Sequence record: NC_028957.1
DNA from: Escherichia phage vB_EcoM_VR26
Length of the DNA: 64,000 bases
Direction: 5' to 3' (one strand)
Shown here: positions 7,143 to 54,660 of the stretch, one piece after another
How the letters are laid out: each line of letters opens with the position of its first letter
Numbering within the stretch: the stretch's first letter is position 1
Notes under the pieces: model-generated
The model's database searches: none
What the model saw: the letters and a program-made list of their open reading frames with translations, nothing else
Told to the model about the DNA's origin: nothing
Program-made: the position numbers and the translations under genes

Positions 7143-7184
7143 AATTTTCTCTCTTGGTTAATAAGTTTATTCTCCAGTGGGACC

Positions 7185-7213
7185 ATTATACTCTGGCCCC
7201 AAGAGTTTGTACA
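7185..7213 (-). promoter_or_regulatory. early promoter (TGTACA, 17 nt, TATAAT)
   Basis: Perfect TATAAT at 7185-7190; GTGTACA at 7208-7213; upstream of 6651..7142. Confidence 0.55.
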
Positions 7214-7219
7214 CTAAAC

Positions 7220-7972
7220 TTAATTAAAAATTTCAACAGCCATGGAACGCGGGACAACAGTAAATTCACCAGCATGGACGACGTTCAGGAGTTCAACACC
7301 ATCTTCAATCCACTGGTCTGTTACCCAACCACAAATGGAACTATTAAATGGACGTTTGATTTGAACTGGTTTGCACAGCAAGTCAACAGGGTCACCCAGT
7401 TCGCTAACTTCTTTCAACAGTACAGATTCACGCGGGTAAAGGATAGCTTCAAGATGCTCGTCTGATTCATTGACTGCAGTAAATTCAAAGATGTTTAAGT
7501 GAGTGCTGTACTTAACTGTTTTTACAGTAAATGGAGCAAAGCCAAAAATACCTTTCAGCACCCGCCAACCGGCATTCAATGCATTAGTATTATCAAAATC
7601 ACCATATCCAACAAGTTGATAGGTTTTGTCAACTTTGATAGGAGCTTCTTCAACTTCTTTGAAGAGCTCAATCTCAGCTTCATAAACCATAATTTTTTCT
7701 ACTTCATTAGTATCCAGGCGGCGGGCATGCAAAATATATGCTTTATCAAACCAGTTACTTTTTACAAAAGTTTCAACAACAAATTCGCCTTCACCTAAAG
7801 CATCAGTCAGAGTATTATACCCAGAAATCATAGCTGCGTTTTGAATAATAGGTTCAATCAGACGATAAGTTTTGTTAGTTTCGATAGTCATATTTTGTTT
7901 CTCAAGTTTTAATTGTTTAATTGGGCGAACATACATGCTTGTGATATCAAAGTCAATAATTTCTGGTTTCAT
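7220..7972 (-). CDS. hypothetical protein with MotB-like C-terminal domain
   Basis: 250 aa; C-terminus GWVTDQWIEDGVELLNVVHAGEFTVVP aligns with GYITDQWVEEGVKLYNIVFLGTFKVIP of 6651..7142. Confidence 0.5.
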   Translation of the reverse strand: MKPEIIDFDITSMYVRPIKQLKLEKQNMTIETNKTYRLIEPIIQNAAMISGYNTLTDALGEGEFVVETFVKSNWFDKAYILHARRLDTNEVEKIMVYEAEIELFKEVEEAPIKVDKTYQLVGYGDFDNTNALNAGWRVLKGIFGFAPFTVKTVKYSTHLNIFEFTAVNESDEHLEAILYPRESVLLKEVSELGDPVDLLCKPVQIKRPFNSSICGWVTDQWIEDGVELLNVVHAGEFTVVPRSMAVEIFN

Positions 7973-8229
7973 TATGCCACCTCGTTGAACATCGCCAGTT
8001 GATTGGGTTGTACAACCATAATTTCACGACGACCTTTTGCGTTTGACACGTTCAGGTAGATGCCTTTGTTCATGTCTGTTTCTTTATCATATACTGCAAC
8101 TTTATTGACAGTAAAGATTTTACCACGAATATTTGTAAATGCACATTCAAACGCTTTGGTCAGACCTGCTTCAGCAGCTTGAATAGCAGACATTTCATAT
8201 TGTTGGCCAATTTTAAAAGAAGTAATCAT
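7972..8229 (-). CDS. hypothetical protein
   Basis: True ATG at 8227-8229 (MITSFKIG) after GAGGAAA SD; track N-terminal extension is translated leader. Confidence 0.5.
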   Translation of the reverse strand: MITSFKIGQQYEMSAIQAAEAGLTKAFECAFTNIRGKIFTVNKVAVYDKETDMNKGIYLNVSNAKGRREIMVVQPNQLAMFNEVA

Positions 8230-8260
8230 TTTGTTTTCCTCATCAGTAGTTGATGAGATG

Positions 8261-8289
8261 ATTATGTCTCTTTCCATTGGCCTTGTACA
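8261..8289 (-). promoter_or_regulatory. early promoter (TGTACA, 17 nt, CATAAT) with ATCAACTACTGATGAGG leader
   Basis: Leader motif 8239-8258 precedes true ATG at 8227-8229. Confidence 0.5.
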
Positions 8290-8296
8290 CTACTTT

Positions 8297-10829: not shown

Positions 10830-10830
10830 A

Positions 10831-11577
10831 TTAACCTCTAATCAGTTTAAAAATTGACGCGTTCAAAGGCAGACCACGTTTCAGTTTTAATTTACCAATA
10901 AAACCAATCTTCTCAAAACGCTCAAGACCTTGAATGATTTTATCATAGCAATCAAAAAGCGTTTCAGCATTAGTTAATTTCTTGGTAACTTTCCAGTCAT
11001 TACCCTTGAGCAGGACATTCAATTTAGTAAGCTCATGACCTTCTGCAATACGGGAACCATCAATGCGAGCCTTCAGAGCAACCATTTTTAATTGGTTTTC
11101 TTTTGACTGCTCTGATTTACTCATTTGGGCATAATGCTTAACGCGATTCTCACGTTTGTGCTGGATGTTCTTTATATGGTTGTATGACTTTTTAATCTGT
11201 TCCCATTTCTCTGAAGTCAGATTTAACTTTTCAATCTTCTTGGCAGATGGGCGAGCAATTTTTACAGCAACATCATCACGACGTTGTTTAAGCTCACCCA
11301 GGGACCAATCAGAACGCATGGTATTATATTTCTTTTTAACAGGAATAACATTACCCTTGATATAACCAATATCATTGTTAAAACGTTCTAATGATAACTT
11401 CTCGTCTTCAATAGAGTTATTAAATGCTTCACCGGAATAAGCACAAACTTTTTGGTCAAGAATGTTAACCAAGTAATTGAAATCTAGGTTAAAGTCCTTA
11501 CCACGGCGTTTAGCAGAAGCTTGAGTGTGTTCCAGGCGACGTTTAACTTTCAGCGTTTTGGTTTTTGATAAAGTCAT
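10831..11577 (-). CDS. hypothetical basic protein (srd position)
   Basis: 248 aa; Lys/Arg-rich; lies between dda and the ADP-ribosyltransferases where T4 has srd; no motif recognised. Confidence 0.4.
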   Translation of the reverse strand: MTLSKTKTLKVKRRLEHTQASAKRRGKDFNLDFNYLVNILDQKVCAYSGEAFNNSIEDEKLSLERFNNDIGYIKGNVIPVKKKYNTMRSDWSLGELKQRRDDVAVKIARPSAKKIEKLNLTSEKWEQIKKSYNHIKNIQHKRENRVKHYAQMSKSEQSKENQLKMVALKARIDGSRIAEGHELTKLNVLLKGNDWKVTKKLTNAETLFDCYDKIIQGLERFEKIGFIGKLKLKRGLPLNASIFKLIRG

Positions 11578-11624
11578 GATATTTTTCTCATCTTACGGAC
11601 GATTAAATAACTCAGTATGGAATC

Positions 11625-11652
11625 ATTATACACTATTCATCTTTTATGTACA
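11625..11652 (-). promoter_or_regulatory. early promoter (TGTACA, TATAAT) with CCATACTGAGTTA leader
   Basis: Upstream of 10831..11577. Confidence 0.5.
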
Positions 11653-11712: not shown

Positions 11713-12327
11713 TTAATTCAAAACAGTTAAATGCCAAACAGTATACAGGTCATTCAATGGGTGTTTCTCAATCAAATCTACGCGAAGCGTAGTCCCAGCG
11801 GGAAACATAAACTCATCCTCATCATTAACCAGGTGTAAGTTTGACTTCCTGGTTGCTTCTGGATATGCACCATTGAACTCTTCAGGAGGAGCACCGCAAA
11901 TCATTTTAAAGATTGCTTCCTGATAGTTATACGCATAAGGTGCATTGTTTATGCAGAAAATATTCCTTGTACCATAGAAGCTATATGATGCGAAATTTCT
12001 TGCAACCTGCCAGTCCCTGGAAAAACTCATCACACGATTGAACTCAATTGTTGCACCAACATATCTTAAATCTTCCAGGTATTCCATGGTTTTCTTTGAT
12101 ATACCACGGAACAATGCTGCAGGCGGTGCAGTGTTCAGATTGTTGCGGATAATCCTGGTTAAGTCTTCTTGAATCAGGTCGGGTTTATTTTCCATACACT
12201 GCCAGAGTACCGATTGCTCATTATCTGTATAAATGGTATCAATCTCTGCTTGACATTGGTCACGAAAAGACTCGCTAGAAGCGGCAGTATCAATAATTCC
12301 ATTCAAAACGTCATCAGTGTACAGCAT
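11713..12327 (-). CDS. ADP-ribosyltransferase (ModA/ModB family)
   Basis: R-S-E type elements (LFRGIS, SFS, acidic NDEDEF); true ATG at 12325-12327 (MLYTDD); upstream track residues are translated leader. Confidence 0.7.
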   Translation of the reverse strand: MLYTDDVLNGIIDTAASSESFRDQCQAEIDTIYTDNEQSVLWQCMENKPDLIQEDLTRIIRNNLNTAPPAALFRGISKKTMEYLEDLRYVGATIEFNRVMSFSRDWQVARNFASYSFYGTRNIFCINNAPYAYNYQEAIFKMICGAPPEEFNGAYPEATRKSNLHLVNDEDEFMFPAGTTLRVDLIEKHPLNDLYTVWHLTVLN

Positions 12328-12358
12328 TTTATTATCCTCATCAGTAGTTGATAGGAAC

Positions 12359-12387
12359 ATCTTAACATGTCTTATTATTCTTGTACA
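12359..12387 (-). promoter_or_regulatory. early promoter (TGTACA, 17 nt, TAAGAT) with ATCAACTACTGATGAGG leader
   Basis: Inside 3' end of 12375..12932; drives 11713..12327. Confidence 0.45.
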
Positions 12388-12932
12388 CAGTCAAGAACAT
12401 AATAATCACCAACAAATCCAGCATCAACTATCACGAATTTCTGGTCAACTGGAACAAACCATTCAAGCTCAGAATCAATCATGTCCATATATTCTTCACG
12501 CCTTAACGTTGCTGCCTGTGCGGAACCAGATGCAGTATTGAAGAATTCCAGCGGAACGTCAAGCGCGAGCTTACGCATCGCATCATGATAACAAAAAGCC
12601 TCGGTCTGATTTAATCTGACAATAGTCCTTGTCACATATTCCATTGCAGCAAAATCCCTGGCAATACCATAGTCTTCTGTAAAGGAAGTTATTCTTCCAA
12701 ATTCAAAAGGTTGCATTAATTCTTTTGCTTCATCTAACAACTCAATCTCTTGATGGGTAACCCCGCGATACAAGACTGTATCAGGTACAGATAACCTTGA
12801 CTTGATGATTGAGTTGACGTTTGAATGCAAGGTTTTGTCAACCTTTGATGTGCGACATTCAAACAATGAAGCTATCTCCATTTCGCTAAATTTTAACTGG
12901 TTGGGTTCGGTATCAGATTTGATGATGTTCAT
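12375..12932 (-). CDS. ADP-ribosyltransferase (ModA/ModB family)
   Basis: 185 aa; LYRGV, SFTEDYGIARDF and EEYMD motifs; paralogous to 11713..12327. Confidence 0.7.
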   Translation of the reverse strand: MNIIKSDTEPNQLKFSEMEIASLFECRTSKVDKTLHSNVNSIIKSRLSVPDTVLYRGVTHQEIELLDEAKELMQPFEFGRITSFTEDYGIARDFAAMEYVTRTIVRLNQTEAFCYHDAMRKLALDVPLEFFNTASGSAQAATLRREEYMDMIDSELEWFVPVDQKFVIVDAGFVGDYYVLDCVQE

Positions 12933-12988
12933 AATGGCCTCTCTGTTGTAAGAAAGACCATTATGTCATTAGGAGGGGAGTAAGTAAA

Positions 12989-13243
12989 CTACTTAAATAC
13001 TCCAAGTGGGACGCCGAAGATAGCGATGTCTGCGGCCATGCCAATTGGGGATTGACATGATGAGTAAGAACTTTTCGATTCTGTTGGTCGTTTGGCTTTA
13101 ATTGTCTCGGATTCAATCTTAAGCCTTTGCACACGATTAATTTTTTGTTGCTCGATTTCCTTATGAGCGTGTTTACGGTCGATATCCTGCGCCGATGTGG
13201 GAATATTTGTTAACCAGTTCATCATTTCCCCCATGGAGCCCAC
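12989..13243 (-). CDS. hypothetical protein
   Basis: 84-aa ORF. Confidence 0.35.
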   Translation of the reverse strand: MGSMGEMMNWLTNIPTSAQDIDRKHAHKEIEQQKINRVQRLKIESETIKAKRPTESKSSYSSCQSPIGMAADIAIFGVPLGVFK

Positions 13244-18872: not shown

Positions 18873-19166
18873 TTATTCACCTGTAACTTCTTTGACGATG
18901 TTTTCATTTTCAAAGTTAGGGTCACAATACAACACGTAATTATACTGCATAACCCCACCAGATGCCAACTGGTCAGATACTTCTTTGACCTTGTTTGGTT
19001 GGTCACGTTTAGTGATGTTCATGATGTCCGCGTAAATCTGGTGCTCAACTGCTTCCTGGTCAGCGGTCATTGACCACTCGCATAAGTCTTTATCATAACC
19101 AGCAGTAACTGGAGCTGCGTGACACGAAGCGAGGACTAAGATTGCTGCGATAGATAACTTTTTCAT
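18873..19166 (-). CDS. sp: Spackle periplasmic protein
   Basis: 97 aa; signal peptide; GYDKDLCEWSMTADQ and GGVMQYNYVLYCD match recalled T4 Sp. Confidence 0.85.
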   Translation of the reverse strand: MKKLSIAAILVLASCHAAPVTAGYDKDLCEWSMTADQEAVEHQIYADIMNITKRDQPNKVKEVSDQLASGGVMQYNYVLYCDPNFENENIVKEVTGE

Positions 19167-19224
19167 TTGAATCTCCTTAGTAGTTGATAGGGATAATATA
19201 CTGCATTATCCCCTTGTTGTACAC

Positions 19225-19791
19225 TTATTTTTCGTTTAAACGAATTTTTTGTTGATGTTGCTTTGCTGCAATAATATATTTTGCTTTTTCTAATGCCAAT
19301 TGTTTTTCAGTTCCATCCATCACCATAAAGTAAATCTGCCCAGCAACAGTTTGTGGAATTGTGCTTGGTAAATTATCTAAAAAAACTTTTATATTTTTTT
19401 GATGAATTTCATAAGCATTAAAACATTTTTTATAATTTATATAATAAGGGTGTACACCCCAAAATAATATTTTGTTTCCATGTATTGTGTGTTGCTTCAT
19501 TTCAACAGAAACTGGATAATCATTAATTATTATCCGTTTAGATACCAATTTATCAAATGAATATTCCCATTGTTCGGATGTAATTATATTTCCATTTAAT
19601 TTTACAATTTTATCACTTTTTTCAACTATATAATTACCACACACATATTTTGAGTAACCAGGCCTTGAAAATTTTATTGTTTCTTCCGACAATAATTCTG
19701 CTTTTTGCATATAACTATCATATGTACTAATAGAATATGCAGGTTTGGCAAGGCCGCACAATGCAAAAGCAATAATGAATAATTTTTTCAT
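19225..19791 (-). CDS. secreted protein, unknown function
   Basis: 188 aa; N-terminal signal peptide MKKLFIIAFALCGLAKPAYS; markedly AT-rich. Confidence 0.5.
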   Translation of the reverse strand: MKKLFIIAFALCGLAKPAYSISTYDSYMQKAELLSEETIKFSRPGYSKYVCGNYIVEKSDKIVKLNGNIITSEQWEYSFDKLVSKRIIINDYPVSVEMKQHTIHGNKILFWGVHPYYINYKKCFNAYEIHQKNIKVFLDNLPSTIPQTVAGQIYFMVMDGTEKQLALEKAKYIIAAKQHQQKIRLNEK

Positions 19792-20082
19792 TTAGATTTC
19801 CTCACAAAAGGCCCATTCAGCGTGATAAACTGTTGCGCCAGGGGTTGCATTCATTTGAACCAAGTCTACAGGTGAAATCACACGATATAGCTTAGGTTCT
19901 CCTCCAATTGAACGTGCTGCACGTCCAGCATAAATCTTCGCCAAACCAATGTCTTCAGTAAAGAAAACACGATTTAGATTTTTCTTACGACCAGTTTCTG
20001 ACAGGACTCCAGTTTCTTCTGGAGGACAAAGCATGTTATTGATATTTGCCAGGCTGCATGACCCATGATAGAAAGTTTTCAT
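19792..20082 (-). CDS. hypothetical protein
   Basis: 96 aa; TATAAT and TGTACA promoter upstream. Confidence 0.45.
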   Translation of the reverse strand: MKTFYHGSCSLANINNMLCPPEETGVLSETGRKKNLNRVFFTEDIGLAKIYAGRAARSIGGEPKLYRVISPVDLVQMNATPGATVYHAEWAFCEEI

Positions 20083-20108
20083 TTTATTCTCCAGTAGTTG
20101 ATAGGGTC

Positions 20109-20146
20109 ATTATACTATAAAGAAAAAGGGGTGTACACCCCTTTTA
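20109..20146 (-). promoter_or_regulatory. early promoter whose -35 TGTACA lies in terminator palindrome GGGGTGTACACCCC
   Basis: TATAAT 20109-20114; TGTACA 20132-20137; palindrome 20128-20141 followed by U-run. Confidence 0.5.
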
Positions 20147-20150
20147 TCAC

Positions 20151-20453
20151 TTATGCCAACTCATAATTGTGCATTGTCAGACAACGAATTTTTCCAGTAG
20201 TTGGGTGCATAACAGTCACACTAATTGTGCAATCATCACACACGTTAACAAAAGGTTCCGCGATAACAAATACTTCACCGCCTGCCAACAGATACTCACG
20301 AAGGCTTGAGCGAACCGCTGAAGGGTGAACATCGCTTTTGAGCTTTATTAATTTACCGGTTTGAATGCCAGATGCGATAAGAGCAGCACAGGTTTCATCA
20401 CGGCGAGCGAATTGTCCAAAGTAGTAACGATTCATGTCGGTTTGATTAAACAT
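20151..20453 (-). CDS. hypothetical protein
   Basis: 100 aa; AGGAAA SD; promoter cassette upstream. Confidence 0.45.
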   Translation of the reverse strand: MFNQTDMNRYYFGQFARRDETCAALIASGIQTGKLIKLKSDVHPSAVRSSLREYLLAGGEVFVIAEPFVNVCDDCTISVTVMHPTTGKIRCLTMHNYELA

Positions 20454-20504
20454 ATGGTTTTCCTTTTTAGTGGGTTGGTTTATTGTGTAACTCAGTATGG
20501 AATC

Positions 20505-20533
20505 ATTATGCCCTAGTAGAATTCAGTTGTACA
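20505..20533 (-). promoter_or_regulatory. early promoter (TGTACA, 17 nt, CATAAT) with CCATACTGAGTTAC leader
   Basis: Immediately after gene 41 terminator; upstream of 20151..20453. Confidence 0.5.
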
Positions 20534-20540
20534 CCCTTTT

Positions 20541-20569
20541 TAAAATAAAAAAGGACCCGAAGGTCCTTG
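20541..20569 (-). terminator. rho-independent terminator after gene 41
   Basis: aggacc-cgaa-ggtcct directly after gene 41 stop, followed by U-run. Confidence 0.6.
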
Positions 20570-24399: not shown

Positions 24400-24642
24400 T
24401 CATTTGGTTTCCTTGATGATAATTACTTGTGCGTTTGATTTACGTTCAGCAACGAGTGCCCAGATAAATGCAATAAACCATCCAACCATTGTCCAACCTA
24501 ACAGAAGGTTAACAAAGAAGATTCCGCAATTACTTTTGGTACCACGCAGTAGCGCGATAATCCACGGCAGAAAATATGCCAATGCGGCCAAGAATAAAGA
24601 ACCAGCGCCAAGAACAAAAGTACCCGCAATTATTGTTTCCAT
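24400..24642 (-). CDS. Imm-like small membrane protein
   Basis: 80 aa, two hydrophobic segments; directly upstream of gene 43 as T4 imm. Confidence 0.55.
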   Translation of the reverse strand: METIIAGTFVLGAGSLFLAALAYFLPWIIALLRGTKSNCGIFFVNLLLGWTMVGWFIAFIWALVAERKSNAQVIIIKETK

Positions 24643-24719
24643 TTTAATATCCTCAAGTTTGTCTAGTCATCAGTAGTTGATGAAAGAATAATACGGCAAT
24701 CCATTGCCGTTGTAAACAC

Positions 24720-27434: not shown

Positions 27435-27487
27435 TTGGTTTCCTTTATAGTCGAGTGATTGACTTTTGTTTGTATGGCTATTATACT

Positions 27488-27510
27488 ACAAAAGGGACCG
27501 AAGTCCCTTA
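27488..27510 (-). terminator. hairpin between regA and gene 43 (terminator or translational operator)
   Basis: aagggac-cgaa-gtccctt; weak U-tract; about 55 nt upstream of gene 43 ATG. Confidence 0.4.
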
Positions 27511-29473: not shown

Positions 29474-30169
29474 TTAATCTTGGAATTCGTGGCTAGAGCC
29501 TTGTTCCATTGCAATCACATAACTTGCTTGTGTGCCTTCAAACTTCGTAGCAAATTTATCATCTTTCGCCCAAAGCATAACACGGTAATCAGCCGGAATC
29601 ATTTTCATGTTCAGTTTGTTAATGATAAATTTAAACGCTGCATCGCCTTCGTAATCACCACACACTAGGGAATACAATGGGCGCGCTAATTCTTTATCTT
29701 CGAGCTGGTTATAACCATGGATAACAATCTTACCATCTTTGTTGGTGATAGCAAAAGTATCCAGAGACAAACCGCCAGCCACACGCAGAAGCTGCTGCAG
29801 GTCACTACCTTTCAGGTCAAAGATAACCTTAGCTACCGGGAAAGGAATCTTCTTAGCAGGGAACACGATAGTGCTCGGGTCAGCTGCAGGCCAGTGAATC
29901 GTTGAACGTTGGTCTTTGATAATGATGTTTGATGCATCTTCAGCCAGAGATACTTCAGCTTGGTCAGTTACCAGGCCCAGGATACTTAAGAAGCCGTTCA
30001 GGTCATAAATTGCAGCTTCAAAGTCAATTGTATCATTGATTTCAGATTCACCATATGACGCTCCAGTTACGGAACGAGTCAGGATGGTATTACCTGGTTT
30101 AAGCATAATGCCAGAGTAGATGGAGGTGAAGTTTTTCAGAACTGCGATGGTGTCACGACTAAATTTCAT
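29474..30169 (-). CDS. 45: sliding clamp
   Basis: 231 aa; collinear with recalled T4 gp45. Confidence 0.9.
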   Translation of the reverse strand: MKFSRDTIAVLKNFTSIYSGIMLKPGNTILTRSVTGASYGESEINDTIDFEAAIYDLNGFLSILGLVTDQAEVSLAEDASNIIIKDQRSTIHWPAADPSTIVFPAKKIPFPVAKVIFDLKGSDLQQLLRVAGGLSLDTFAITNKDGKIVIHGYNQLEDKELARPLYSLVCGDYEGDAAFKFIINKLNMKMIPADYRVMLWAKDDKFATKFEGTQASYVIAMEQGSSHEFQD

Positions 30170-31053
30170 TTCATTTTCCTATTAACATAATAATTTGACC
30201 AGGACCGGATTGCACCCTGATAATTTTCATCATTAAACCCATGTTCAATGGCGTGTTTTCTAAACGTAATATACCCCGGTTGTCCTAAAGCATTCCACAA
30301 TGTTTTAAGTTCATCTTCATACTGCAACCAGGTTCCCCTTGCTTTGGATTTCCTAAATTTTTCTTTAAATTCAGGACTAGCATTTCTTTCAGTTGCTCGT
30401 TTTGAAGCCTTTATTCTATTATCTGAATTATTCCAATATTCAGTAATTGATTTTAAATATTTTTCGTATACTTCAGATGTATTCATTATAGCTTTGAATT
30501 TTAAAGCATACTCGGCATCTTTATAACGATTTTTGACTTCAATAGACCTTGCTTGTCGAGCTTCGGCAGTCCAATATTCTTTTTGAAAGTCTTTAATTGC
30601 TTGAATGTGCTTATCCGAAATTGAGCAATCTTTACGAACACCAACATAATCAGATGTAAGTTCGGATGGATGCAATTTAACAACTTTACCTGTTTTCAAG
30701 TTTCGGTATGGAGCATATCCAGGAGCATCATACCGGCTTTGGTCGTGAGCATACGTTTTATTAAAGTACTTCTCATTGGTTACAGCTTTAACTGACATTT
30801 GAAAAATATTTTCTATTTTTCTTGGGTCCTGCTTTGTTTCCCCAATGATAGTAACGATATAGTCGCCGCTATCAATCAATTCATTATACAACTTAGTGTA
30901 TTTTGAATTCGGCGAACCTGTATAAATTTTATTATTTTTGTCGAGAATATTTTGACCGTTAAATGTCGCATCAACCTTTGAACCAATATAATAACAAGGG
31001 AATTCGTTATTTTGTTCCCTTGTTATAAAGGTTATTTTATAAATCAAATTCAC
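30166..31053 (-). CDS. GIY-YIG homing endonuclease (Seg-like)
   Basis: 295 aa; N-terminal IYKITFI...YYIGS GIY-YIG motif; AT-rich; stop overlaps gene 45 start (ATGA). Confidence 0.6.
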   Translation of the reverse strand: MNLIYKITFITREQNNEFPCYYIGSKVDATFNGQNILDKNNKIYTGSPNSKYTKLYNELIDSGDYIVTIIGETKQDPRKIENIFQMSVKAVTNEKYFNKTYAHDQSRYDAPGYAPYRNLKTGKVVKLHPSELTSDYVGVRKDCSISDKHIQAIKDFQKEYWTAEARQARSIEVKNRYKDAEYALKFKAIMNTSEVYEKYLKSITEYWNNSDNRIKASKRATERNASPEFKEKFRKSKARGTWLQYEDELKTLWNALGQPGYITFRKHAIEHGFNDENYQGAIRSWSNYYVNRKMK

Positions 31054-38137: not shown

Positions 38138-38289
38138 AACACGCTACGGTCACACACCATCTGTGGGGCATCAGGCCAATTCAAAGGTTGATACCATACA
38201 TCCAGACTTGATATTTTAGTTACTTGAACAGGATAGCCATTTACAGAATAATACCGGTCAACTTTAATTTCTTTATCTTGAACAACCAT
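38107..38289 (-). CDS. hypothetical small protein
   Basis: 60 aa; ATG directly after conserved leader CATCAACTACTGATGAGGAAAAC. Confidence 0.5.
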   Translation of the reverse strand: MVVQDKEIKVDRYYSVNGYPVQVTKISSLDVWYQPLNWPDAPQMVCDRSVFCAVAEEIKS

Positions 38290-38320
38290 TTTGTTTTCCT
38301 CATCAGTAGTTGATGGGATA

Positions 38321-38360
38321 ATGATACATCATTCAAAGGGGCTTGTACACCCCTTTTTAA
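38321..38360 (-). promoter_or_regulatory. early promoter with TGTACA in hairpin loop, ATCAACTACTGATGAGG leader
   Basis: aaagggg-cttgtacac-cccttttt hairpin 38335-38360 after nrdH-like stop; leader runs into ATG at 38289. Confidence 0.5.
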
Positions 38361-40242: not shown

Positions 40243-40433
40243 TAAAAGGCCTCATCAGAATAGCGAAGTTGAGCTTCAAGCCAATGAATATAATCTGCTG
40301 CGGCAAAAATTAAAGCCGATTCTTCATCGGGTAACTTACGAGAATCCGACAGCTCGTAAAGAGAATGTTCAATTAAACGACCTTTATGTCGACCTACTTC
40401 AATTTTGGTACTCATACCCAAACTCCATATCAA
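40242..40433 (-). CDS. hypothetical small protein
   Basis: 63-aa ORF. Confidence 0.35.
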   Translation of the reverse strand: MIWSLGMSTKIEVGRHKGRLIEHSLYELSDSRKLPDEESALIFAAADYIHWLEAQLRYSDEAF

Positions 40434-40531
40434 TTAAATCATTGTTTGAAGGTTCATTATACTCTATTTCGGAATCGTTGTAAACCGGTTCCTCTGGCTC
40501 GACAGTTTCCCATCGAGCGGTATACCATGGC

Positions 40532-41708: not shown

Positions 41709-41901
41709 ATTTGTGTTTACAATGACGGCATTTATATTGAAGCGGAGAGCTACGCCAATAAGTCAATTGGACCTGTTCAGTTCCGCATTCAGGGCAGTTC
41801 GGAACATTCTTAGAAGCTTGTTCACGTCGTTCGACAATTTTAATAATTTGGTTCCAATCAGGAATAGTTTCTGCAATGTCTTCTCTTAAACGTTGTTTCA
41901 T
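41680..41901 (-). CDS. zinc-ribbon protein
   Basis: 73 aa; CPECG...CRHCKH four-Cys ribbon. Confidence 0.45.
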
Positions 41902-42875
41902 TTCAACAGCTCCAGAGCCTGTTCCAGTTTATCCAGACGATTGGTTGATTCTTCCCAGAGCTTTTTAGCTTTAGTGTAGGCCTCAGTTAAGATTTTATTA
42001 TGTTCAAGAGCTTCCGAGTAAGCCTTTTCTAAGGCGATAACTTCAGGGCGTACATTATCAGGAACATTATTAATGGCTTCAGCCCATTTAACTTCTTGCG
42101 GTGCATTCATAATTTCCTCACTTTTCTTTTTATAGATTTCTGCATCAGTTGGTTGCTTTGCACATTTAACTTCGCGCAGTGTCACCACAATTTTATAACC
42201 TTTCCAACCATGAGAACTGGTGATAGGGTCAACTTTAATTTTTTCAACAGTGTGCATATAATTAAGTGCACACTGCAGCTGATGAGTGAGCGTGCACGCA
42301 ACATCAAGATACTTTTTGATATTTTCAGGCGTAGCCTCTGGAGTATAGAACTCACGCTTAACTGTAATAATTACCTGATTTTCACCAGAATCTTTAACCT
42401 TTACCATGTGCTCAGCCAGATGGTAGATAGTGCGAAAATCCCCACCCATCAATTTTGTTGCTGATTTTATGATAGACATTTTGTTATTTCTGAATTCACG
42501 TGACCAACTGTTTGCGAATTCAGAAACAGTATAGCCTTGTTTATCAAGATAGTATTTTTCAACATCACCAAACCAATGATATCCAATTGTACCTTTACCA
42601 CGTCTGGATTCAACACCAAACTTATTAAGAAGGTCTTTATTAACCAGGTATGCCAGGACTCTGGAACCTTTAAAAGTTTTCTTGATATCATCATTACCTG
42701 CGCGATTCGCAATAGCCGCGATGTCTTTCTCAAAGTGACAGGATGCAATAATCGTCGAGTCAATCTGATTTAACCAGGAATTGATAATTGAAAGGATAGC
42801 CGATTCACCTATTAATGGTTTTACTTTTGTATCGATAGTGGTGTTAAAGGCCTGAATATATTCGTTACGTGTCAT
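41898..42875 (-). CDS. hypothetical protein, coiled-coil C-terminus
   Basis: 325-aa ORF; no recognised motif. Confidence 0.5.
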   Translation of the reverse strand: MTRNEYIQAFNTTIDTKVKPLIGESAILSIINSWLNQIDSTIIASCHFEKDIAAIANRAGNDDIKKTFKGSRVLAYLVNKDLLNKFGVESRRGKGTIGYHWFGDVEKYYLDKQGYTVSEFANSWSREFRNNKMSIIKSATKLMGGDFRTIYHLAEHMVKVKDSGENQVIITVKREFYTPEATPENIKKYLDVACTLTHQLQCALNYMHTVEKIKVDPITSSHGWKGYKIVVTLREVKCAKQPTDAEIYKKKSEEIMNAPQEVKWAEAINNVPDNVRPEVIALEKAYSEALEHNKILTEAYTKAKKLWEESTNRLDKLEQALELLK

Positions 42876-42932
42876 AGTGTTCTCCTCATAAAGTAGGAAT
42901 CATTATATTCCCTCCATCCTTGGAAGTAAACA

Positions 42933-45045: not shown

Positions 45046-45570
45046 TTATGCGTGAACCGTCTTTAAACGCTCTTCAAATTTCAGAAGGAGTACCTGGCGC
45101 TCTGCTCTTTGTTTGGTATAGGTTTCAATACGCTCTGAAGTGAGATTGTATTGTTCATTAACTGATTCCCGCATGAATTCAGGAATCTCTTTACATGCTT
45201 TGATTTCATTGAACTTATCAAGCACTGCTTGTTGTTCAGCAATCAGACCATCATAATATTGGATATCTGATTTGATGTTCTGTACATCAGATTCAGTTGG
45301 CATATTTTTCTTTGCTCTTGCCGCTTGATACTCAGCATTAGTCTCTCTTGACCAGAACAAAGAGCGGTTTTTGTTAGTGTTTTTATACACATCAACAATA
45401 CCAACTGAATCAACAGTCACAATCCAGTTCCAGGCGTTTTTATAAGTTTGACCACCTGATACTGTAATCTCACCTGCACAAGCAACATCATTAAAGAACT
45501 TGCTTTGTGCTTCTGATTTAAAATTACCATTATTGTAATTAATCAGATTAAAGATTGATTTGACTTCCAT
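45046..45570 (-). CDS. hypothetical protein
   Basis: 174 aa; GGGAGAA SD; promoter with inverted repeat upstream. Confidence 0.5.
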   Translation of the reverse strand: MEVKSIFNLINYNNGNFKSEAQSKFFNDVACAGEITVSGGQTYKNAWNWIVTVDSVGIVDVYKNTNKNRSLFWSRETNAEYQAARAKKNMPTESDVQNIKSDIQYYDGLIAEQQAVLDKFNEIKACKEIPEFMRESVNEQYNLTSERIETYTKQRAERQVLLLKFEERLKTVHA

Positions 45571-45596
45571 TTTATTCTCCCGTTTGTTTGGTAACT

Positions 45597-45637
45597 CAGT
45601 ATAGGAACATTATGTCACGCTCCCATACTGGTGTACA
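45597..45637 (-). promoter_or_regulatory. early promoter with 10-bp inverted repeat bracketing the -10
   Basis: TGTACA 45632-45637; -10 45609-45614; arms cagtatagga (45597-45606) and tcccatactg (45621-45630), one mismatch. Confidence 0.5.
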
Positions 45638-45949: not shown

Positions 45950-46156
45950 TCACTTGCGACGACGTTTTGGTAATGGTTTAGGGAAGAACATTGCTTTACC
46001 TGCAGGGGTCAAAGTCACACGCAAAGCATTACCAATACCAAGGGATGATTTAACCAGACCTTTGGCTTTTAACTCACCAAATGCTTGGCGTTGTTCAGGG
46101 TCACGTGTGTTAACCATCAGACCTTTTTCACCAGCAGCTTTGATTAATTCTAACAT
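45950..46156 (-). CDS. hypothetical basic small protein
   Basis: 68 aa; basic C-terminus KPLPKRRRK; promoter with inverted repeat upstream. Confidence 0.45.
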   Translation of the reverse strand: MLELIKAAGEKGLMVNTRDPEQRQAFGELKAKGLVKSSLGIGNALRVTLTPAGKAMFFPKPLPKRRRK

Positions 46157-46184
46157 TTTATTCTCCAGTTTTTATTTGGTAACT

Positions 46185-46225
46185 CAGTATGGGAACATTA
46201 TACGTCTATCCCATACTGATGTACA
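46185..46225 (-). promoter_or_regulatory. early promoter with perfect 10-bp inverted repeat bracketing the -10
   Basis: TGTACA 46220-46225; TATAAT 46197-46202; arms cagtatggga (46185-46194) and tcccatactg (46209-46218). Confidence 0.5.
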
Positions 46226-46687: not shown

Positions 46688-47698
46688 TTAACGATAATAG
46701 GAATTGTGGTTGTCAAGATATACCTCTTCAACAAACTTGTCCCAGAACTTCATGTCTACCTTATCAGGCATACCGTTCTTGGCCGCCCAGACGGCATTGG
46801 TTTCGACTTCATCGACGATTGCTTCAAGTTCAGCTTGTACATCTTTAAAAGCGTGTAGGCCTTGTTTGATTTCAAGGATAAATGGAGCCGTACGTAAAGG
46901 ATATTGAAGGTCACCGGTCATATAAATTTCCTTCAGCTGATATCCAGCTCGATAAGCATGACTCAATGCTTTCCAGTCAATACCTTCATTCGCTTCGGCC
47001 TTACGAGCGCGTTCACCATATTCGGCATCAAGTTTATTCAGAGATTGCTTAAGCTCGATTAATGACAAAGTAGTTTGGTATTTGCGACCGAGAACAGTAT
47101 AAAACGTTTGAGGACCGGTTTTCTCATGGTTATGGAACACCCATTCGCAAAATTCGTTCTCTGGAAGACGATGCTTAATATCTTCAACTTTAGTACGACG
47201 TTGTTTAGTCGTACCATCTTCTTGGTAGTCAACCCACTGTTCAGGAATCTGGTTAACAATTGCCAGTACACCACGTAAAGCAGCCAGTCTAGAACCTTTA
47301 ACACCATATTTTGAAGCTTGCTTACGGACATACCCCAAATATGCTTTCATGTTGGTCGTATAGAACCGTGAACGGTTGTCTTGGATAAATTTCCATACAT
47401 CTGGTAAATCGGATTTGACTACCAGGTTAGCCGGAGTGTGAATCATGTCCAGAGCAACAGTTTCACCTTCAGCCGCCAGTTTAAAGAAATATTTCAGGCT
47501 ATAAAGCTCGTGGTCAACATCGTCTTTAGTGTTTTTGGATGCCGTGTTATTCGTGTTCAAGTTTGTATGATTCATAGCCGTACCTAACAGAATGTCACGT
47601 GGGTGTGGAACAAAGATTTCCTTAAAATCGACATCAGATTCAGGAGTACTTGTTCCATAAAGATGTGAGCCAAAATAGCCCTTCATAACTGTTCTCAT
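46688..47698 (-). CDS. nucleotidyltransferase-fold protein (Pol-beta superfamily)
   Basis: 336 aa; N-terminal FGSHLYGTSTPESDVDF fits the G[SG]-x9-13-D-x-[DE] pattern; later acidic VALDMIH. Confidence 0.5.
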   Translation of the reverse strand: MRTVMKGYFGSHLYGTSTPESDVDFKEIFVPHPRDILLGTAMNHTNLNTNNTASKNTKDDVDHELYSLKYFFKLAAEGETVALDMIHTPANLVVKSDLPDVWKFIQDNRSRFYTTNMKAYLGYVRKQASKYGVKGSRLAALRGVLAIVNQIPEQWVDYQEDGTTKQRRTKVEDIKHRLPENEFCEWVFHNHEKTGPQTFYTVLGRKYQTTLSLIELKQSLNKLDAEYGERARKAEANEGIDWKALSHAYRAGYQLKEIYMTGDLQYPLRTAPFILEIKQGLHAFKDVQAELEAIVDEVETNAVWAAKNGMPDKVDMKFWDKFVEEVYLDNHNSYYR

Positions 47699-48501
47699 TA
47701 TTCGCCTCTTTCATAGTCTTCAATAAATTGCATAATTAAACGTTGATAGTTAGATTTACGGTATCCTAATTTACTAATATGAGTACCAAAAGCTCCACGC
47801 TTAGGCCTATTTAATTTAACCCATAAAGAATAAAGCAAATCATAATCTTGCCAATGTTTTCCTATTCTTTGCTTTGCTTTAGAAGCGTCGGACTGCCTCT
47901 TTTTAGTCTCTGGATTATTTAGAGATTTCTTAACAGCATTTGAATGTCTTTCTCTAACACCCGGGCGTTTAAATGCTTCTTTAACAGATTTAGAAATTTT
48001 CTCTTTAACTTCAGGACGGTTTTGAGCTTCTATTTGAGCCGCCGACATTTTATCTTTTATTTCGGATAGACTCATAGTTATAGAACGTTTATTTCTATAC
48101 TCTTTGGTCTTCCATAGTTCTTTCATCGTATTTGAATGAATTTCTGAAAATTTTTCTCTAACTAATTGGTAGCCCCTAGAAGTTAGTTTAAGATTTCTTC
48201 CTAGAGAATCCTCGCCGAAGTTATAAAATGACCACCAGGCATAAATTAATCCAGAAGAATCAGAATGAATTCTGGCTAGAAGCCAGTGTGCTATAAAATG
48301 TTCTCTGGCCGTCAGCAGAACTAAATTATTAGGTTCATCACTCCCACCAATACATGATGGGAGTATATGATGGGACTCTGTATAAAAATTTAATTTGGAT
48401 TTGTCTAATCCTCTGAATTTACCTCTTTGGATTAGACTATCATAAAGCTTTGTATAATTCATTATTATTTTGTTTTGTCCTCGAAGTGAATTACCGGACA
48501 C
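47698..48501 (-). CDS. HNH homing endonuclease (Mob-like)
   Basis: 267 aa; HNH core ESHHILPSCIGGSDEPNNLVLLTAREHFIAH; repeated basic C-terminal modules; AT-rich. Confidence 0.7.
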   Translation of the reverse strand: MSGNSLRGQNKIIMNYTKLYDSLIQRGKFRGLDKSKLNFYTESHHILPSCIGGSDEPNNLVLLTAREHFIAHWLLARIHSDSSGLIYAWWSFYNFGEDSLGRNLKLTSRGYQLVREKFSEIHSNTMKELWKTKEYRNKRSITMSLSEIKDKMSAAQIEAQNRPEVKEKISKSVKEAFKRPGVRERHSNAVKKSLNNPETKKRQSDASKAKQRIGKHWQDYDLLYSLWVKLNRPKRGAFGTHISKLGYRKSNYQRLIMQFIEDYERGE

Positions 48502-50243: not shown

Positions 50244-50246
50244 ATG

Positions 50247-50483: not shown

Positions 50484-50686
50484 TATTCCACCACATATGA
50501 TAATGAGAAAATTGCTGATGAAAGATGAGTGGCATCTTCTTCACACAGTTCAAATGGAGCTTTCTGCAAGAGCTCAACCACTTCTTCATCAGTGGCACTG
50601 TCCATAAAGATTGCATAATCATTAAGATAGATAACAACCTCATCACCAGTATTAACTGCATCAATCTTGATGTTCTTAATTCTCAT
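50483..50686 (-). CDS. hypothetical small protein
   Basis: True ATG at 50684-50686 (MRIKNIK) after leader; track GTG start at 50767 reads through the promoter. Confidence 0.45.
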   Translation of the reverse strand: MRIKNIKIDAVNTGDEVVIYLNDYAIFMDSATDEEVVELLQKAPFELCEEDATHLSSAIFSLSYVVE

Positions 50687-50754
50687 TGTATTCTCCTCAG
50701 TAGTTGATGGGATAATAGTACACCCTTTTGATGAGGATGTAAACCCCCTAAATG

Positions 50755-50784: not shown

Positions 50785-50787
50785 GAA

Positions 50788-51502: not shown

Positions 51503-51528
51503 AGCGGAATACTAGTTAGTATCTGTAT

Positions 51529-51804: not shown

Positions 51805-51811
51805 AAGGACC

Positions 51812-52384: not shown

Positions 52385-52393
52385 ATCACCTTC

Positions 52394-52597: not shown

Positions 52598-52791
52598 TAT
52601 TCATCTACGTGTTGGACACGTTTGTTTTTGTCAATAAAAGTATATTCAACATACTCGCCGATATACCACTTATCTACATTGTGCGGACTTTTTATAGGAC
52701 ACTTGGTTGCCCGTGTTTCGGACCAGTGTCGAATAATTGTAGCTTTGTTTTTAGGGTCAAATGGGTGTGGATAATGTGCTTTCATAATCAA
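52573..52791 (-). CDS. hypothetical small protein
   Basis: 72-aa ORF. Confidence 0.4.
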   Translation of the reverse strand: MIMKAHYPHPFDPKNKATIIRHWSETRATKCPIKSPHNVDKWYIGEYVEYTFIDKNKRVQHVDEYCLKVQWL

Positions 52792-53236
52792 CTACCACCA
52801 AATCAATATCAGGAGTAAACATATCAATTAACCGGGAAACCTTATCCCAATCACCACCTGCAATACCACATCCAATCCTGGGAATATAAATCACAGGCTT
52901 GAACAAAAGGGATTCTGCTTGTCGATTTAATTCTATCATACAATTTACTAAAGCGCCATAATCCAGATTTGGACCCGGTTCATACTGGGTATAAAGGTTA
53001 TAGCACATACCAAATCCAGTTGGCTTATGTTTAAAAACGATAGACATATCACCGAGTTTTTCTCGGGAACCGTATTCAGTTGATGTTTTATCCATTTCTA
53101 AAATTTTTGGGTAAGCCTTTGCCAGTTGGCCAGCAACGCCTGACCCCATTGTATGGAAACAATTACAGCCATGAGCTATGATGTTTCCTTCAAGAAAGAG
53201 GGCGACAATATCGCCCTTAATATAGTTAACAATCAT
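52757..53236 (-). CDS. macro-domain protein (ADP-ribose binding/processing fold)
   Basis: 159 aa; glycine-rich motifs HGCNCFHTMGSGVAGQL and IGCGIAGGDW typical of macro domains. Confidence 0.55.
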   Translation of the reverse strand: MIVNYIKGDIVALFLEGNIIAHGCNCFHTMGSGVAGQLAKAYPKILEMDKTSTEYGSREKLGDMSIVFKHKPTGFGMCYNLYTQYEPGPNLDYGALVNCMIELNRQAESLLFKPVIYIPRIGCGIAGGDWDKVSRLIDMFTPDIDLVVVDYESTLSTPI

Positions 53237-53592
53237 TTAGAGTTCAATCCTCTGTTATAGGAATCGACTAACCTGTCAACCATACTGGTGCAGGCCGCTT
53301 TATATTTGGCACTCGACAGAATACAATCCATTTCAAATAGTTTCTTTTCATATTTGTTGGATAAAATACTCTTTTTCATAAGAGTGTGTTCAACATCATT
53401 TTGACCGTCTTTATATGCAGCAGTGAGTTTGGCACTGAACTGGATTACACAATCCACATTGCTTGATGCGCAATAATCTTTGGCCGTCCTCGTTGCATAT
53501 TCTATGATGCTATTATTATCATCGCTCTGTACTGAAGCTATTCCTCCCGTGCTGAATACTAACCCTATGGCTAAAGTTATGACTCTTACCAT
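53233..53592 (-). CDS. putative secreted protein
   Basis: 119 aa; N-terminal signal-like segment. Confidence 0.4.
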   Translation of the reverse strand: MVRVITLAIGLVFSTGGIASVQSDDNNSIIEYATRTAKDYCASSNVDCVIQFSAKLTAAYKDGQNDVEHTLMKKSILSNKYEKKLFEMDCILSSAKYKAACTSMVDRLVDSYNRGLNSK

Positions 53593-54135
53593 TTAATCCA
53601 CCGTTTTTAATAGGCCTCGTGATTTTAAGTAGTTAGCTTTTTCTAGGACTTGCGAAGCATACGTATTTCCAGCTTTCACATTCCACCCTGCGTTATATGA
53701 TGATAGTGTTTTTCTTATGTCCCCCTTGTGGATGTTCAACCAGTATGAAAGCTCAATATAAGCCCAGCGTGCACTGTTCTCTCTCTTGCTTATCATCTTG
53801 ATTATTTCTTTATCTGTCATTGTCCACCCAACCTGTTTTACGCGCTCGCGCACGGTTGGAAGATAATTTTGGAATATACCATATGCATGATGCTTATCTT
53901 TATTTAATCCTGTATTAACGCCAGCAGATGATTCCTGCCAGGTTAAACCAGCCATGATATATCCCAAACCATTATGTTGGTGCGGATTTTCTTTGTACTT
54001 ACCATTTTTCTGGAACTGTTCTCCAAACGCATAAGCATATTGGAGGTTCTCCATTTGTTCATTACTGAAAGTAGGCTCTACGCTATGGGCAGACATACTA
54101 ACTGTCAATAGTAAAGTGGCTATTACTTTTTTCAT
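53593..54135 (-). CDS. periplasmic lytic transglycosylase-like protein
   Basis: 180 aa; signal peptide; ES...GIFQ...YNAG motif order typical of Slt-type domains. Confidence 0.55.
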   Translation of the reverse strand: MKKVIATLLLTVSMSAHSVEPTFSNEQMENLQYAYAFGEQFQKNGKYKENPHQHNGLGYIMAGLTWQESSAGVNTGLNKDKHHAYGIFQNYLPTVRERVKQVGWTMTDKEIIKMISKRENSARWAYIELSYWLNIHKGDIRKTLSSYNAGWNVKAGNTYASQVLEKANYLKSRGLLKTVD

Positions 54136-54145
54136 GAATTCCCCA

Positions 54146-54604
54146 TTAGATATAAATCACTTTTGTGCTAATTTTTCCTTCCAGACGATTAGAGTTAACA
54201 AACGCCATACGACAACACATGGTTGGAGACTTCCCAGGAAGAGCTGGGTTAACTGTCATTCCTAACCATAAGTTCTTGTCTGTGATTTCCAGACGAAGTG
54301 GACGGTAGTTCACATTCGGGTCAATTTGTGCTTCAACTTCCGGGAGTGGTTTCATCTCCAGGAATTCAACAATTTCTTTTACATGTGGTGTGATTTTTCC
54401 AAACAAGTCAAAAACATATTGTTCGTCAATTTCACGTTGGATTGCACGGTCCAACAGGTGTGGACTGTACTTAATGAAGAATGCTTCAAGGCCTGCTTCT
54501 TTACAAGCCTTGTTGATAGCATTATTAATTTTGAGGAACTCCGTTTCAAAAATACGACGAAGTTTATTGCGGCGAATGTAAACACTTGAATCGATAGTAG
54601 TCAT
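54146..54604 (-). CDS. regB: endoribonuclease RegB
   Basis: True ATG at 54602-54604 (MTTIDSSVYIRRNKLRR) with AAGGAGA SD; collinear with recalled T4 RegB. Confidence 0.85.
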   Translation of the reverse strand: MTTIDSSVYIRRNKLRRIFETEFLKINNAINKACKEAGLEAFFIKYSPHLLDRAIQREIDEQYVFDLFGKITPHVKEIVEFLEMKPLPEVEAQIDPNVNYRPLRLEITDKNLWLGMTVNPALPGKSPTMCCRMAFVNSNRLEGKISTKVIYI

Positions 54605-54631
54605 GATTATCTCCTTTTGTTTGATGGGATA

Positions 54632-54660
54632 ATCATAACTCATTTCAACCTGCTTGTACA
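54632..54660 (-). promoter_or_regulatory. early promoter upstream of regB
   Basis: TGTACA 54655-54660, 17-nt spacer, TATGAT -10; leader with AAGGAGA SD. Confidence 0.45.

Follow-up and report, generated by a model that had tools for sequence, protein, structure and literature searches.

The repeated intergenic elements with the hexamer TGTACA in Escherichia phage vB_EcoM_VR26 (NC_028957.1; the stretch of 64,000 nucleotides analysed here is referred to as the window) are, with a probability that we put at roughly 85%, immediate-early promoters of the genus Gaprivervirus that serve the host polymerase, each of them fused to the leader of its gene in a composite of the promoter-early stem-loop (PeSL) type. 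The preliminary description of this DNA had proposed a recurring early promoter/leader cassette, and this interpretation is supported by a spacing of 17 nt, an A-tract, a pyrimidine run leading to A at +1, use of the coding strand only and positions ahead of early genes. That the motif might show no enrichment beyond an AT-rich background was checked: GTGTACA occurs in 23 copies on the two strands of the window against 6.2 ± 2.2 in dinucleotide shuffles, with 0 of 100 shuffles reaching 23, and in a de novo test that assumed no motif, the hexamer most often placed 17 nt ahead of a −10-like hexamer on the minus strand was TGTACA (11 cases, with at most 5 for any other hexamer). As TGTACA is palindromic, each of the 35 copies offers a reading on either strand and hence supplies an internal control: 14 of the 35 readings on the coding strand (minus) have a −10 hexamer 16–17 nt downstream, as has 1 of 35 on the plus strand, which bears out the repeated layout with a −10 element about 17 nt from TGTACA. 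Other spacings between TGTACA and a −10 hexamer gave 0–1 cases on the coding strand (200 shuffles: mean 0.24, maximum 2).

The resulting catalogue comprises 20 intergenic cassettes (Table 1; each is named after the coordinate of the first base of its −35 hexamer on the minus strand), 14 with TGTACA and 6 with TTTACA or TTTACT. The earlier count of at least fourteen sites between 7143 and 54660 stands in part: this interval holds 11 TGTACA cassettes, all on the minus strand, and fourteen are reached if either the three outside it (2757, 60089 and 61943) or the TTTACA/T cassettes are counted. The spacer measures 17 nt in 19 of the 20 cassettes and 16 nt in the remaining one, and the base before TGTACA is G in 12 cases and A in 2. 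Every cassette follows the same order, namely an A-tract, G-T(G/T)TACA, 17 nt, a TATAAT-like hexamer, g.TCC(C/T), A(+1)TCAACTAC or ATACTGAGTTAC, a Shine-Dalgarno (SD) sequence and ATG; alignment of the 20 sites on the −10 hexamer gives the consensus aaaA..G-T(G/T)TACA-N17-TATAAT-g.TCC(c/t)-A(+1)TCAAC, in which the UP-like A-rich tract aaaA falls at about −43 to −40. Apart from the hexamers themselves, information is highest at T−4, C−3 and C−2 of the discriminator, followed by the A at the expected start: this A is the first purine behind the pyrimidine run, and thus fits a sharply defined start site.

The positions of the cassettes correspond to those of early promoters in phage T4. They precede orthologues of the T4 early genes motB, srd, modA/modB, sp, imm, 55.6 and regB, and at motB, srd, modB, sp, imm/imm.1 and 55.6 the match to a T4 early-type promoter is also found by sequence; TTTACA/T-N17-(−10) arrangements lie in T4 upstream of rIIA.1, motB, srd, modB, mrh.2, sp, dmd, imm.1 and 55.6. 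T4 early promoters are read by the host sigma-70 polymerase and consist of an UP-like A-tract, a −35 element, often TGn, a −10 element and "additional regions of consensus" (Hinton 2010, PMC2988021); the same review gives a typical early promoter at T4 regB, where the window likewise has a cassette. The window promoters differ from those of T4 in the base at −34 (14 of 20 sites), in a less regular extended −10 TG and in a discriminator that is more C-rich and more uniform. In T4, middle transcription also extends to several of the genes downstream of the cassettes (some in the 55-nrdC region, for example), and the sites could on this ground be taken for MotA/AsiA-dependent middle promoters. 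The chance of this is close to negligible: the MotA box, (a/t)(a/t)(a/t)TGCTT(t/c)A centred at −30, replaces the −35 element (PMC2988021) and was found at −30 in 0 of 20 sites, whereas every site carries a hexamer at the −35 position, the 17-nt spacing and the upstream A-tract, as T4 early promoters do.

The departure of the −35 element from that of T4, recorded in the preliminary description, comes down to one base, at −34, in 14 of the 20 sites, while the other 6 match the T4 element GTTTAC(A/T). This is seen most directly at motB, where the T4 promoter (TTTACAAACTCTTGGGACCAGAGTATAATGGTCCC) and that of the window (TGTACAAACTCTTGGGGCCAGAGTATAATGGTCCC) have nearly identical spacers and essentially the sole difference is T to G at −34; on this comparison of sequences, TGTACA appears as a point change in an otherwise conserved orthologous promoter. 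Counted among predicted promoters in a uniform scan of each genome or region, TGTACA accounts for 14/20 in the window, 11/15 in phage VR7, 8/9 in VR25 and 6/8 in VR20, as against 0–2 of 8–17 in six Dhakavirus genomes, 0/10 in the T4 region scanned and 3/10 in the Mosigvirus phiE142. Position −34 is polymorphic inside Gaprivervirus as well, since the sp promoter of VR20 has TTTACA where its relatives have TGTACA. One T4 early-type promoter reads TATACA, which indicates that −34 does not strictly define a promoter of this type, and GTATACA occurs in Morganella phage MP1; thus, the −35 element is best written T-N-T-A-C-A/T.

The hexamer is a perfect palindrome, as had been pointed out, and its enrichment in one genus by repeated T-to-G changes at orthologous promoters might suggest that it is not a −35 element and serves either as the operator of a dimeric regulator, from phage or host, or as a signal by which a factor specific to the lineage retargets the polymerase. 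We regard this as very unlikely: the element is used on one strand (14 against 1) at a fixed distance of 17 nt from the −10 hexamer, orthologous and paralogous cassettes carry the non-palindromic TTTACA/T (at the sp promoter even within the genus, in VR20), and both T4 and MP1 also use TATACA. An extended palindrome around TGTACA was considered and rejected, as the flanking G and A are asymmetric. The palindromy hence looks incidental, with these flanks and with TTTACA and TATACA at equivalent promoters in T4 and MP1.

Two leader types were found at the places given in the preliminary description, whose coordinates are correct within a few bases. Leaders measure 11–45 nt across the 20 cassettes and start with (A/G)TCAAC (type 1) in nine and with ATACTGAGTTA (type 2) in four, the remainder being individual. 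The leader 1 sequence ATCAACTACTGA is exact at 8243, 12341, 24670, 38303 and 50697, in all cases on the minus strand and at the predicted +1, and the leader 2 sequence CCATACTGAGTTAC lies at 11607, 20487, 45591 and 46179. Type 1 is found behind TGTACA as well as behind TTTACA (as at 57572, 50743 and 24716), so that leader type and −35 variant are not coupled. T4 also has ATCAACTACTGA at imm.1 and ahead of cef, and at sp it has ATAAACTACTGA; the T4 imm.1 counterpart of the imm cassette reads TTTACA...ATCAACTACTGAT. Starts of the ATCAAC type are common in phage JS98 and present in phiE142. Type 2 was found, among the coliphage genera sampled, in Gaprivervirus only (6–10 places per genome), and it recurs in Morganella phage MP1 within a feature that its authors annotated as a MEME-derived promoter. 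This MP1 promoter (NC_031020, 59823–59872) has the −35 element GTATACA and a perfect 13-bp inverted repeat, GGTAACTCAGTAT...ATACTGAGTTACC, around its −10 hexamer; the 3' arm of the repeat is leader type 2 of the window, which suggests that the module is old or mobile between distant T4-like genera. A further promoter of this kind was noticed in T4 at 6520–6640 on the minus strand, between motB and cef: it reads TATACA-N17-TACTAT, has a spacer (TCAGTAGTTGAT) complementary to the start ATCAACTACTGA over 12 bp, and leads into GGAGAATAAAATG and an 11-codon open reading frame (ORF) unannotated in NC_000866. At the corresponding place in the window, ahead of cef (~6600–6653, minus strand), a hairpin GATAGGG...CCCTATC is followed by ATCAATGAGGAG and ATG with no recognisable −35 or −10 element, and may be a decayed cassette matching the T4 promoter.

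In order to compare the parts of the cassette, identity was calculated between genera for orthologous promoters and within the window for different cassettes: it amounts to 0.80 and 0.90, respectively, for the −35 element, 0.76 and 0.78 for the −10 element, 0.55 and 0.44 for the initial transcribed sequence, 0.45 and 0.53 for the discriminator and 0.35 and 0.33 for the spacer, and a block from −4 to +9 (TCCCATCAACTAC) is conserved across genera. These values bear on the possibility that recombination, through PeSL shuffling or gene conversion, is the main source of the likeness among leaders and among promoters, the start sequence having no function of its own. Several observations fit such an origin: cassettes match each other at 81–88% over 81–95 nt (for instance, the 8289 cassette and the VR7 counterpart of the 38349 cassette agree at 81% over 81 nt, and the 20533 cassette matches another VR7 cassette), breakpoints between window and VR7 lie at 19238 and 46240, leader 2 cassettes stand in 6–10 copies per Gaprivervirus genome and reappear in the distant Morganella phage, and at srd the gene-specific untranslated region (UTR) AATCGTCCGTAAGATGAGAAAAATATC has been kept in T4, JS98 and the window while the promoter/start module differs in each. 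Nevertheless, we consider this account unlikely, as conversion would homogenise contiguous tracts: the start region lies above background and the spacer between two conserved hexamers does not (0.33–0.35 against 0.45–0.55 for discriminator and start, within the genome and between genera), which argues against pure copy-and-paste, and ATCAAC-type starts persist at orthologous sites in four genera whose promoters have otherwise diverged. The earlier suggestion of selection on the 5' end of the mRNA thus holds insofar as discriminator and initial transcribed sequence exceed the spacer in identity; it has to be qualified in that leader conservation is partly that of RegB/S1 sites, of stem-loop arms and of exchanged cassettes. 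A mini-hairpin of leader 1 (AUCA-ACUAC-UGAU) as a 5' stabiliser was set aside: only 4–5 bp would be left in the promoter-proximal transcript and many leader 1 variants have no hairpin. In-frame translation of the leaders does create spurious N-terminal extensions, as had been noted, with MERDIIISSTTDEENK-M... in ORF 7972–8277 and MFLSTTDEDNK-M... in ORF 11713–12360.

Four leaders (7213, 20137, 46225 and 45637) end at their 3' side in an exact match to GGAGAATAAA(A/C), the target of the phage nuclease RegB with ribosomal protein S1, and near-matches are found at 57572 and 50743. The published RegB consensus is GGAGRAYARAA / GGAGAAUAAAA (Durand et al. 2006, PMC1702504; Uzan and Miller 2010, PMC3014915). 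The match stands directly ahead of ATG at 20137 and 46225, with GGGAGAATAAAA at 45637: GGAGAAUAAA(A/C) is the ribosome-binding site itself in three leaders, and lies upstream of it in motB. This motB site is orthologous to T4 motB RNA, described as a good RegB substrate (PMC1702504), and RegB is encoded in the window at 54146–54604 (Pfam REGB_T4, E = 3.8e-72). Unlike these four leaders, which are predicted targets, about half of the leaders in the window carry ribosome-binding sites of the GAGGAAAA type, without GGAG and without a RegB target.

Stem-loops accompany many cassettes and occupy different positions relative to the promoter (Table 1). Structure is more pronounced in the cassette regions than in control windows (mean z −1.56 against −0.44, p = 0.0026), with individual stems of −13.6 to −21 kcal/mol and z of −3 to −8; the stem of the nrdC.8 cassette reaches −21.1 kcal/mol (z = −7.2). 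Pairing between the spacer and the discriminator/start region is stronger for arms from the same site than for mismatched arms (−8.0 against −5.8 kcal/mol; permutation p = 0.00015); it is clearly significant in six cassettes. The motB stem covaries: nine distinct sequences from T4-like phages, Gaprivervirus and Dhakavirus align without gaps, 72 of 72 cells are paired (slid controls: 32–46%) and both sides have changed in 5 of 8 pairs. Its non-Watson-Crick pairs are all G-U or U-G on the sense strand, which points to read-through RNA of that strand rather than to a DNA cruciform. At the sp promoter, three unrelated stems are found in three lineages, with minor variants within each and none in T4. 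The stem over the −35 element at 20124–20145 reads GGGGTGTACACCCC and is followed by a T-run; VR20 has GGGGCTTACAGCCCC at the equivalent position. A terminator scan was enriched in the window (31 against 13.6), and no Rfam family reached its gathering score anywhere in it.

In T4, the genes e, soc, 49 and I-TevI are each preceded by a hairpin that masks translation and contains a promoter, the embedded promoter being late. A comparable purpose could be ascribed to the conserved leader and discriminator, which would then exist in order to pair with upstream promoter sequence and mask the ribosome-binding site in read-through RNA. This was tested with the 60 nt upstream of each cassette against 150 shuffled versions, by calculating the unpaired probability of the translation initiation region: general masking was rejected (mean 0.504 for real and 0.531 for shuffled sequences; Wilcoxon p = 0.65, Stouffer z = −1.65), and site-specific masking was detected at p ≤ 0.05 in 5 of the 20 cassettes, namely 61943, modB (p = 0.007), regB, imm and 8289. 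At modB, regB and 61943, the SD sequence and AUG pair strongly with an upstream arm that holds the −10 hexamer and discriminator, as in the T4 cases, and transcripts from the embedded promoter would lack this arm; in contrast to the T4 cases, the embedded promoter is an early sigma-70 promoter and a minority of cassettes is concerned. The modB hairpin comprises 15 bp, in which CATAAT and the discriminator pair with the SD sequence and ATTATG (−20.2 kcal/mol, z = −8.3), and that of regB reaches −16.6 kcal/mol. T4 (~13130–13185) and JS98 (~12490–12540) arrive at the same architecture at modB with different sequences, and differences between VR7, VR25 and the window are all wobble-compatible. At regB, the ribosome-binding site GGAG is buried by promoter sequence in three lineages and in three different ways: −10 hexamer and discriminator do the pairing in the window, the spacer UCUCCUUUUAGU pairs with ACUAAAAGGAGA in L029–L032, and CUCCUCUUG with CAAGAGGAG in L033 (~330–400 in L029–L033). 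In T4, the GGAG of the regB ribosome-binding site is RegB's own target. While this convergence favours masking as the reason for leader conservation, the general test failed, the stems of leader 2 exclude the SD sequence, and leader 1 is conserved even where no masking stem exists, so that we hold this explanation to be doubtful overall. Tentatively, and on the strength of modelled folds, promoter-built stem-loops might tie each early gene to its own promoter: read-through would be attenuated, at modB and regB the ribosome-binding site (for regB also the RegB target) would be buried, and only transcripts from the embedded promoter would be translated. In favour of this dependence, regB and modB each show three independent solutions in sequence; as a general property of the cassettes it is unsupported.

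The cassettes correspond closely to PeSL elements as described for RB49/phi1 (Arbiol et al. 2010, PMC2839356) and for T4/PST and KVP40/nt-1 (Comeau et al. 2014, PMC4122927), in which stem-loops lie between −35 and −10 or overlap −10 and G-T pairs are tolerated (PMC2839356). Shared features are the intergenic composite of ~70–100 bp, repeated through the early region, with an AT-rich tract, sigma-70-type −35 and −10 elements separated by N17, an SD sequence and ATG; a stem-loop with G-T pairs, placed ahead of the promoter, over −35, within the spacer, over −10 or shortly behind it; and copies that resemble each other. A few cassettes also lie at indel or replacement breakpoints between close relatives, an association that is modest in the window. 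As the stem-loop features match the published description, the hairpins are not new in kind. The −35 element is lineage-specific in T4-like phages (PMC4122927) and differs accordingly, with TGTACA here, TTGACA in RB49, TTTACW in T4/PST and TTGYVH in nt-1; furthermore, the discriminator/start block (TCC(C/T)ATCAAC / ATACTGAGTTAC) is more strongly conserved here. Promoter, attenuator and mini-circle results are known from RB49/phi1 only, where one PeSL stem attenuates read-through (PMC2839356). The cassette type has already been described for T4-like phages, and its lineage-level variants are here the −35 element TGTACA, a start context that is uniformly TCC(C/T)A and a second type of leader; in the literature searched we found no published description of Gaprivervirus or VR7 promoters, although one may exist.

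Taken as immediate-early promoters, the cassettes would operate as follows. Unmodified E. coli sigma-70 polymerase would bind the UP-like A-tract at about −45 to −40, recognise T-N-T-A-C-A/T (mostly TGTACA) together with a TATAAT-like −10 element 17 bp downstream, and start at the A that closes the conserved pyrimidine run g.TCC(C/T)|A; the transcript would open with AUCAACUAC... or AUACUGAGUUAC... and reach the start codon after 11–45 nt. RegB with S1 would cut GGAGAAUAAA(A/C) in four leaders and so inactivate these early mRNAs. The spacer is free to vary, and in roughly one third to one half of the cassettes it can pair with the discriminator, the start region or the ribosome-binding site; because of this complementarity read-through RNA would fold into a stem-loop over the −35 element, the spacer or the −10 element, with the modB and regB stems also burying the ribosome-binding site. 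G at the weakly constrained position −34 has become predominant in the genus, likely via short-patch recombination among near-identical A-tract/−35 segments or by drift, and no new recognition mechanism would lie behind the TGTACA spelling.

Several points weigh against this interpretation. Promoter activity, the exact +1 and early timing are deduced from geometry and orthology, and no genome-wide T4 data set of transcription starts was found in the literature against which +1 could be checked. A generic sigma-70 consensus scan was not enriched (64 found against 55 expected), and TGTACA shares no more than 4 of 6 positions with TTGACA, the −35 consensus of sigma-70. As to the T-to-G change at −34, seen at six or more orthologous promoters, selection could be its cause instead of drift or gene conversion, and the interpretation assigns no function to the TCC(C/T)ATCAAC block. 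Finally, only 3 of the ~12 breakpoints between window and VR7 lie at cassettes, a modest association compared with published PeSLs that gives PeSL shuffling weak support: 19238 and 46240 are each 15 bp from a cassette and 27513 is at the hairpin-promoter ahead of gene 43, the remainder being at endonuclease-type or unknown ORFs. Shuffling of the PeSL type is thus plausible in this phage, and not dominant.

Table 1. Predicted promoter/leader cassettes of the window, with their promoter elements, predicted stems and leaders.
Cassette	Gene or location	Coordinates	Strand	Promoter elements	Stem	Leader
2757		2709..2784	(-)	aTGTACA-N17-TAAGAT	Upstream of promoter; terminator hairpin 2765-2784	Very short, GAGGTGAAAAT
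7213	motB	7140..7213	(-)	TGTACA-N17-TATAAT, discriminator ggtccc, +1 A	Over -10; GGGGCCA/TGGTCCC	ACTGGAGAATAAAC, RegB/S1 consensus site
8289	VR7ORF013c orthologue	8227..8289	(-)	TGTACA-N17-CATAAT	Downstream of -10; local, CUCAUCA/UGAUGAG	Leader 1, ATCAACTACTGATGAGG
11652	srd	11575..11652	(-)	TGTACA-N16-TATAAT		Leader 2, ATACTGAGTTAT, fused to srd-specific UTR AATCGTCCGTAAGATGAGAAAAATATC
12387	modA	12325..12387	(-)	TGTACA-N17-TAAGAT	Downstream of -10	Leader 1
12988	modB	12930..12988	(-)	TTTACT-N17-CATAAT	Downstream of -10; 15-bp hairpin, -10 and discriminator with SD and AUG	
19223	sp	19164..19223	(-)	TGTACA-N17-TATATT	Over -10; GGGGATAAT/ATTATCCC	ATCAACTACTAAGGAG
20137		20080..20145	(-)	TGTACA	Over -35; TGTACA is apex of intrinsic-terminator-like hairpin AAAAGGGGTGTACACCCCTTTT, then T-run	ATCAACTACTGGAGAATAAAATG
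20533		20451..20568	(-)	TGTACA-N17-CATAAT	Upstream of promoter; terminator hairpin 20551-20568	Leader 2
24716	imm	24640..24716	(-)	TTTACA, TATTAT	Within spacer; CGGCAAT/ATTGCCG	Leader 1
38349	55.6	38287..38349	(-)	TGTACA, TATCAT	Over -35; GGGG-TGTACA-AGCCCC	Leader 1
40484	Inside 3' end of upstream ORF (49.1 region)	40426..40484	(-)	TTTACA-N17-TATAAT		
42930	Ahead of 325-aa ORF 41898-42875 (nrdC-region gene)	42873..42930	(-)	TTTACT-N17-TATAAT		
45637	nrdC.8	45568..45637	(-)	TGTACA-N17-CATAAT	Over -10; predicted 14 bp, core arms CAGTATGGGA/TCCTATACTG	Leader 2, then GGGAGAATAAAATG
46225	Tandem paralogue of nrdC.8 cassette	46154..46225	(-)	aTGTACAt-N17-TATAAT	Over -10	Leader 2, GGAGAATAAAATG
50743		50684..50743	(-)	TTTACA-N17-TACTAT	Upstream of promoter; terminator-like hairpin and T-run	Leader 1, GAGGAGAATACA
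54660	regB	54602..54660	(-)	TGTACA-N17-TATGAT	-10 and discriminator with GGAGATAATCATG (SD and AUG)	
57572	denV	57515..57572	(-)	TTTACA-N17-TATAAT	Over -10; inner ATAGGGT/ACCCTAT, outer TCTCC/GGAGA	
60089		60031..60089	(-)	TGTACA-N17-CATAAT	Over -10; TGGGGCTAT/ATGGTCCCA	
61943		61884..61943	(-)	TGTACA-N17-TATCAT	Translation initiation region paired in read-through fold	GTCAACTAATGAGG

The genetic context of the cassettes was established by comparison with VR7, to which a 14-kb piece of the window shows 96.8% identity (further close relatives were listed in the same comparison): judged by sequence, the window belongs to a T4-like coliphage of the genus Gaprivervirus (Tevenvirinae). It spans rIIA to regB, denV and e, with every gene on the minus strand, and the VR7 annotation keeps the T4 order on that strand, namely rIIA, 39, motB, dexA, dda, srd, modA/modB, 41, uvsX, 43, 45, 46/47, 55, nrdH, 49 and nrdC onwards. 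In a genome of the T4 type, the window makes up the arm of early and middle genes; in addition to RegB, it encodes DenV and a lysozyme like that of T4. The sequence of the 40484 cassette is nearly identical in JS98 (T4: 47451). Two ORFs of the window are missing from VR7, one of 295 aa at 30166–31053 (−), between gene 45 and rpbA, and one of 267 aa at 47698–48501 (−), and neither has a Pfam match. Relative to VR7 (19600–20403), the segment 19239–19779 of the window has been replaced, beginning 15 bp from the sp cassette, and an orphan GGGGTGTACACCC hairpin with no clear −10 element or downstream gene start is found at 19447–19460. Ahead of gene 43 (DNA polymerase), at 27470–27510 on the minus strand, a GGGACTTCGGTCCC hairpin with a T-run abuts TATAAT; VR7 has an additional small ORF (VR7ORF053c) exactly at this junction.

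Gaprivervirus genomes are being isolated in numbers for phage therapy, and for their annotation the cassettes provide a model of early promoters, T(G/T)TACA-N17-TATAAT-g.TCCYA, together with start-codon corrections, since the leaders create false N-terminal extensions. With T, G or A at −34 of the same orthologous promoters in different T4-like genera, nature has carried out a clean experiment, and the contribution of this position is directly testable. If the dependence of early genes on their own promoters is true, the T4 mechanism of a late promoter inside a hairpin would extend to early sigma-70 promoters, and switching off the early promoter would suffice to stop the synthesis of toxic enzymes (modB, regB) in spite of continuing middle-mode read-through. 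The shut-off of T4 early promoters is incompletely understood (PMC3014915, PMC2988021). The start block and the promoter-embedded hairpins of modB and regB bear on how toxic early enzymes are confined, and early expression shut off, in T4-like phages.

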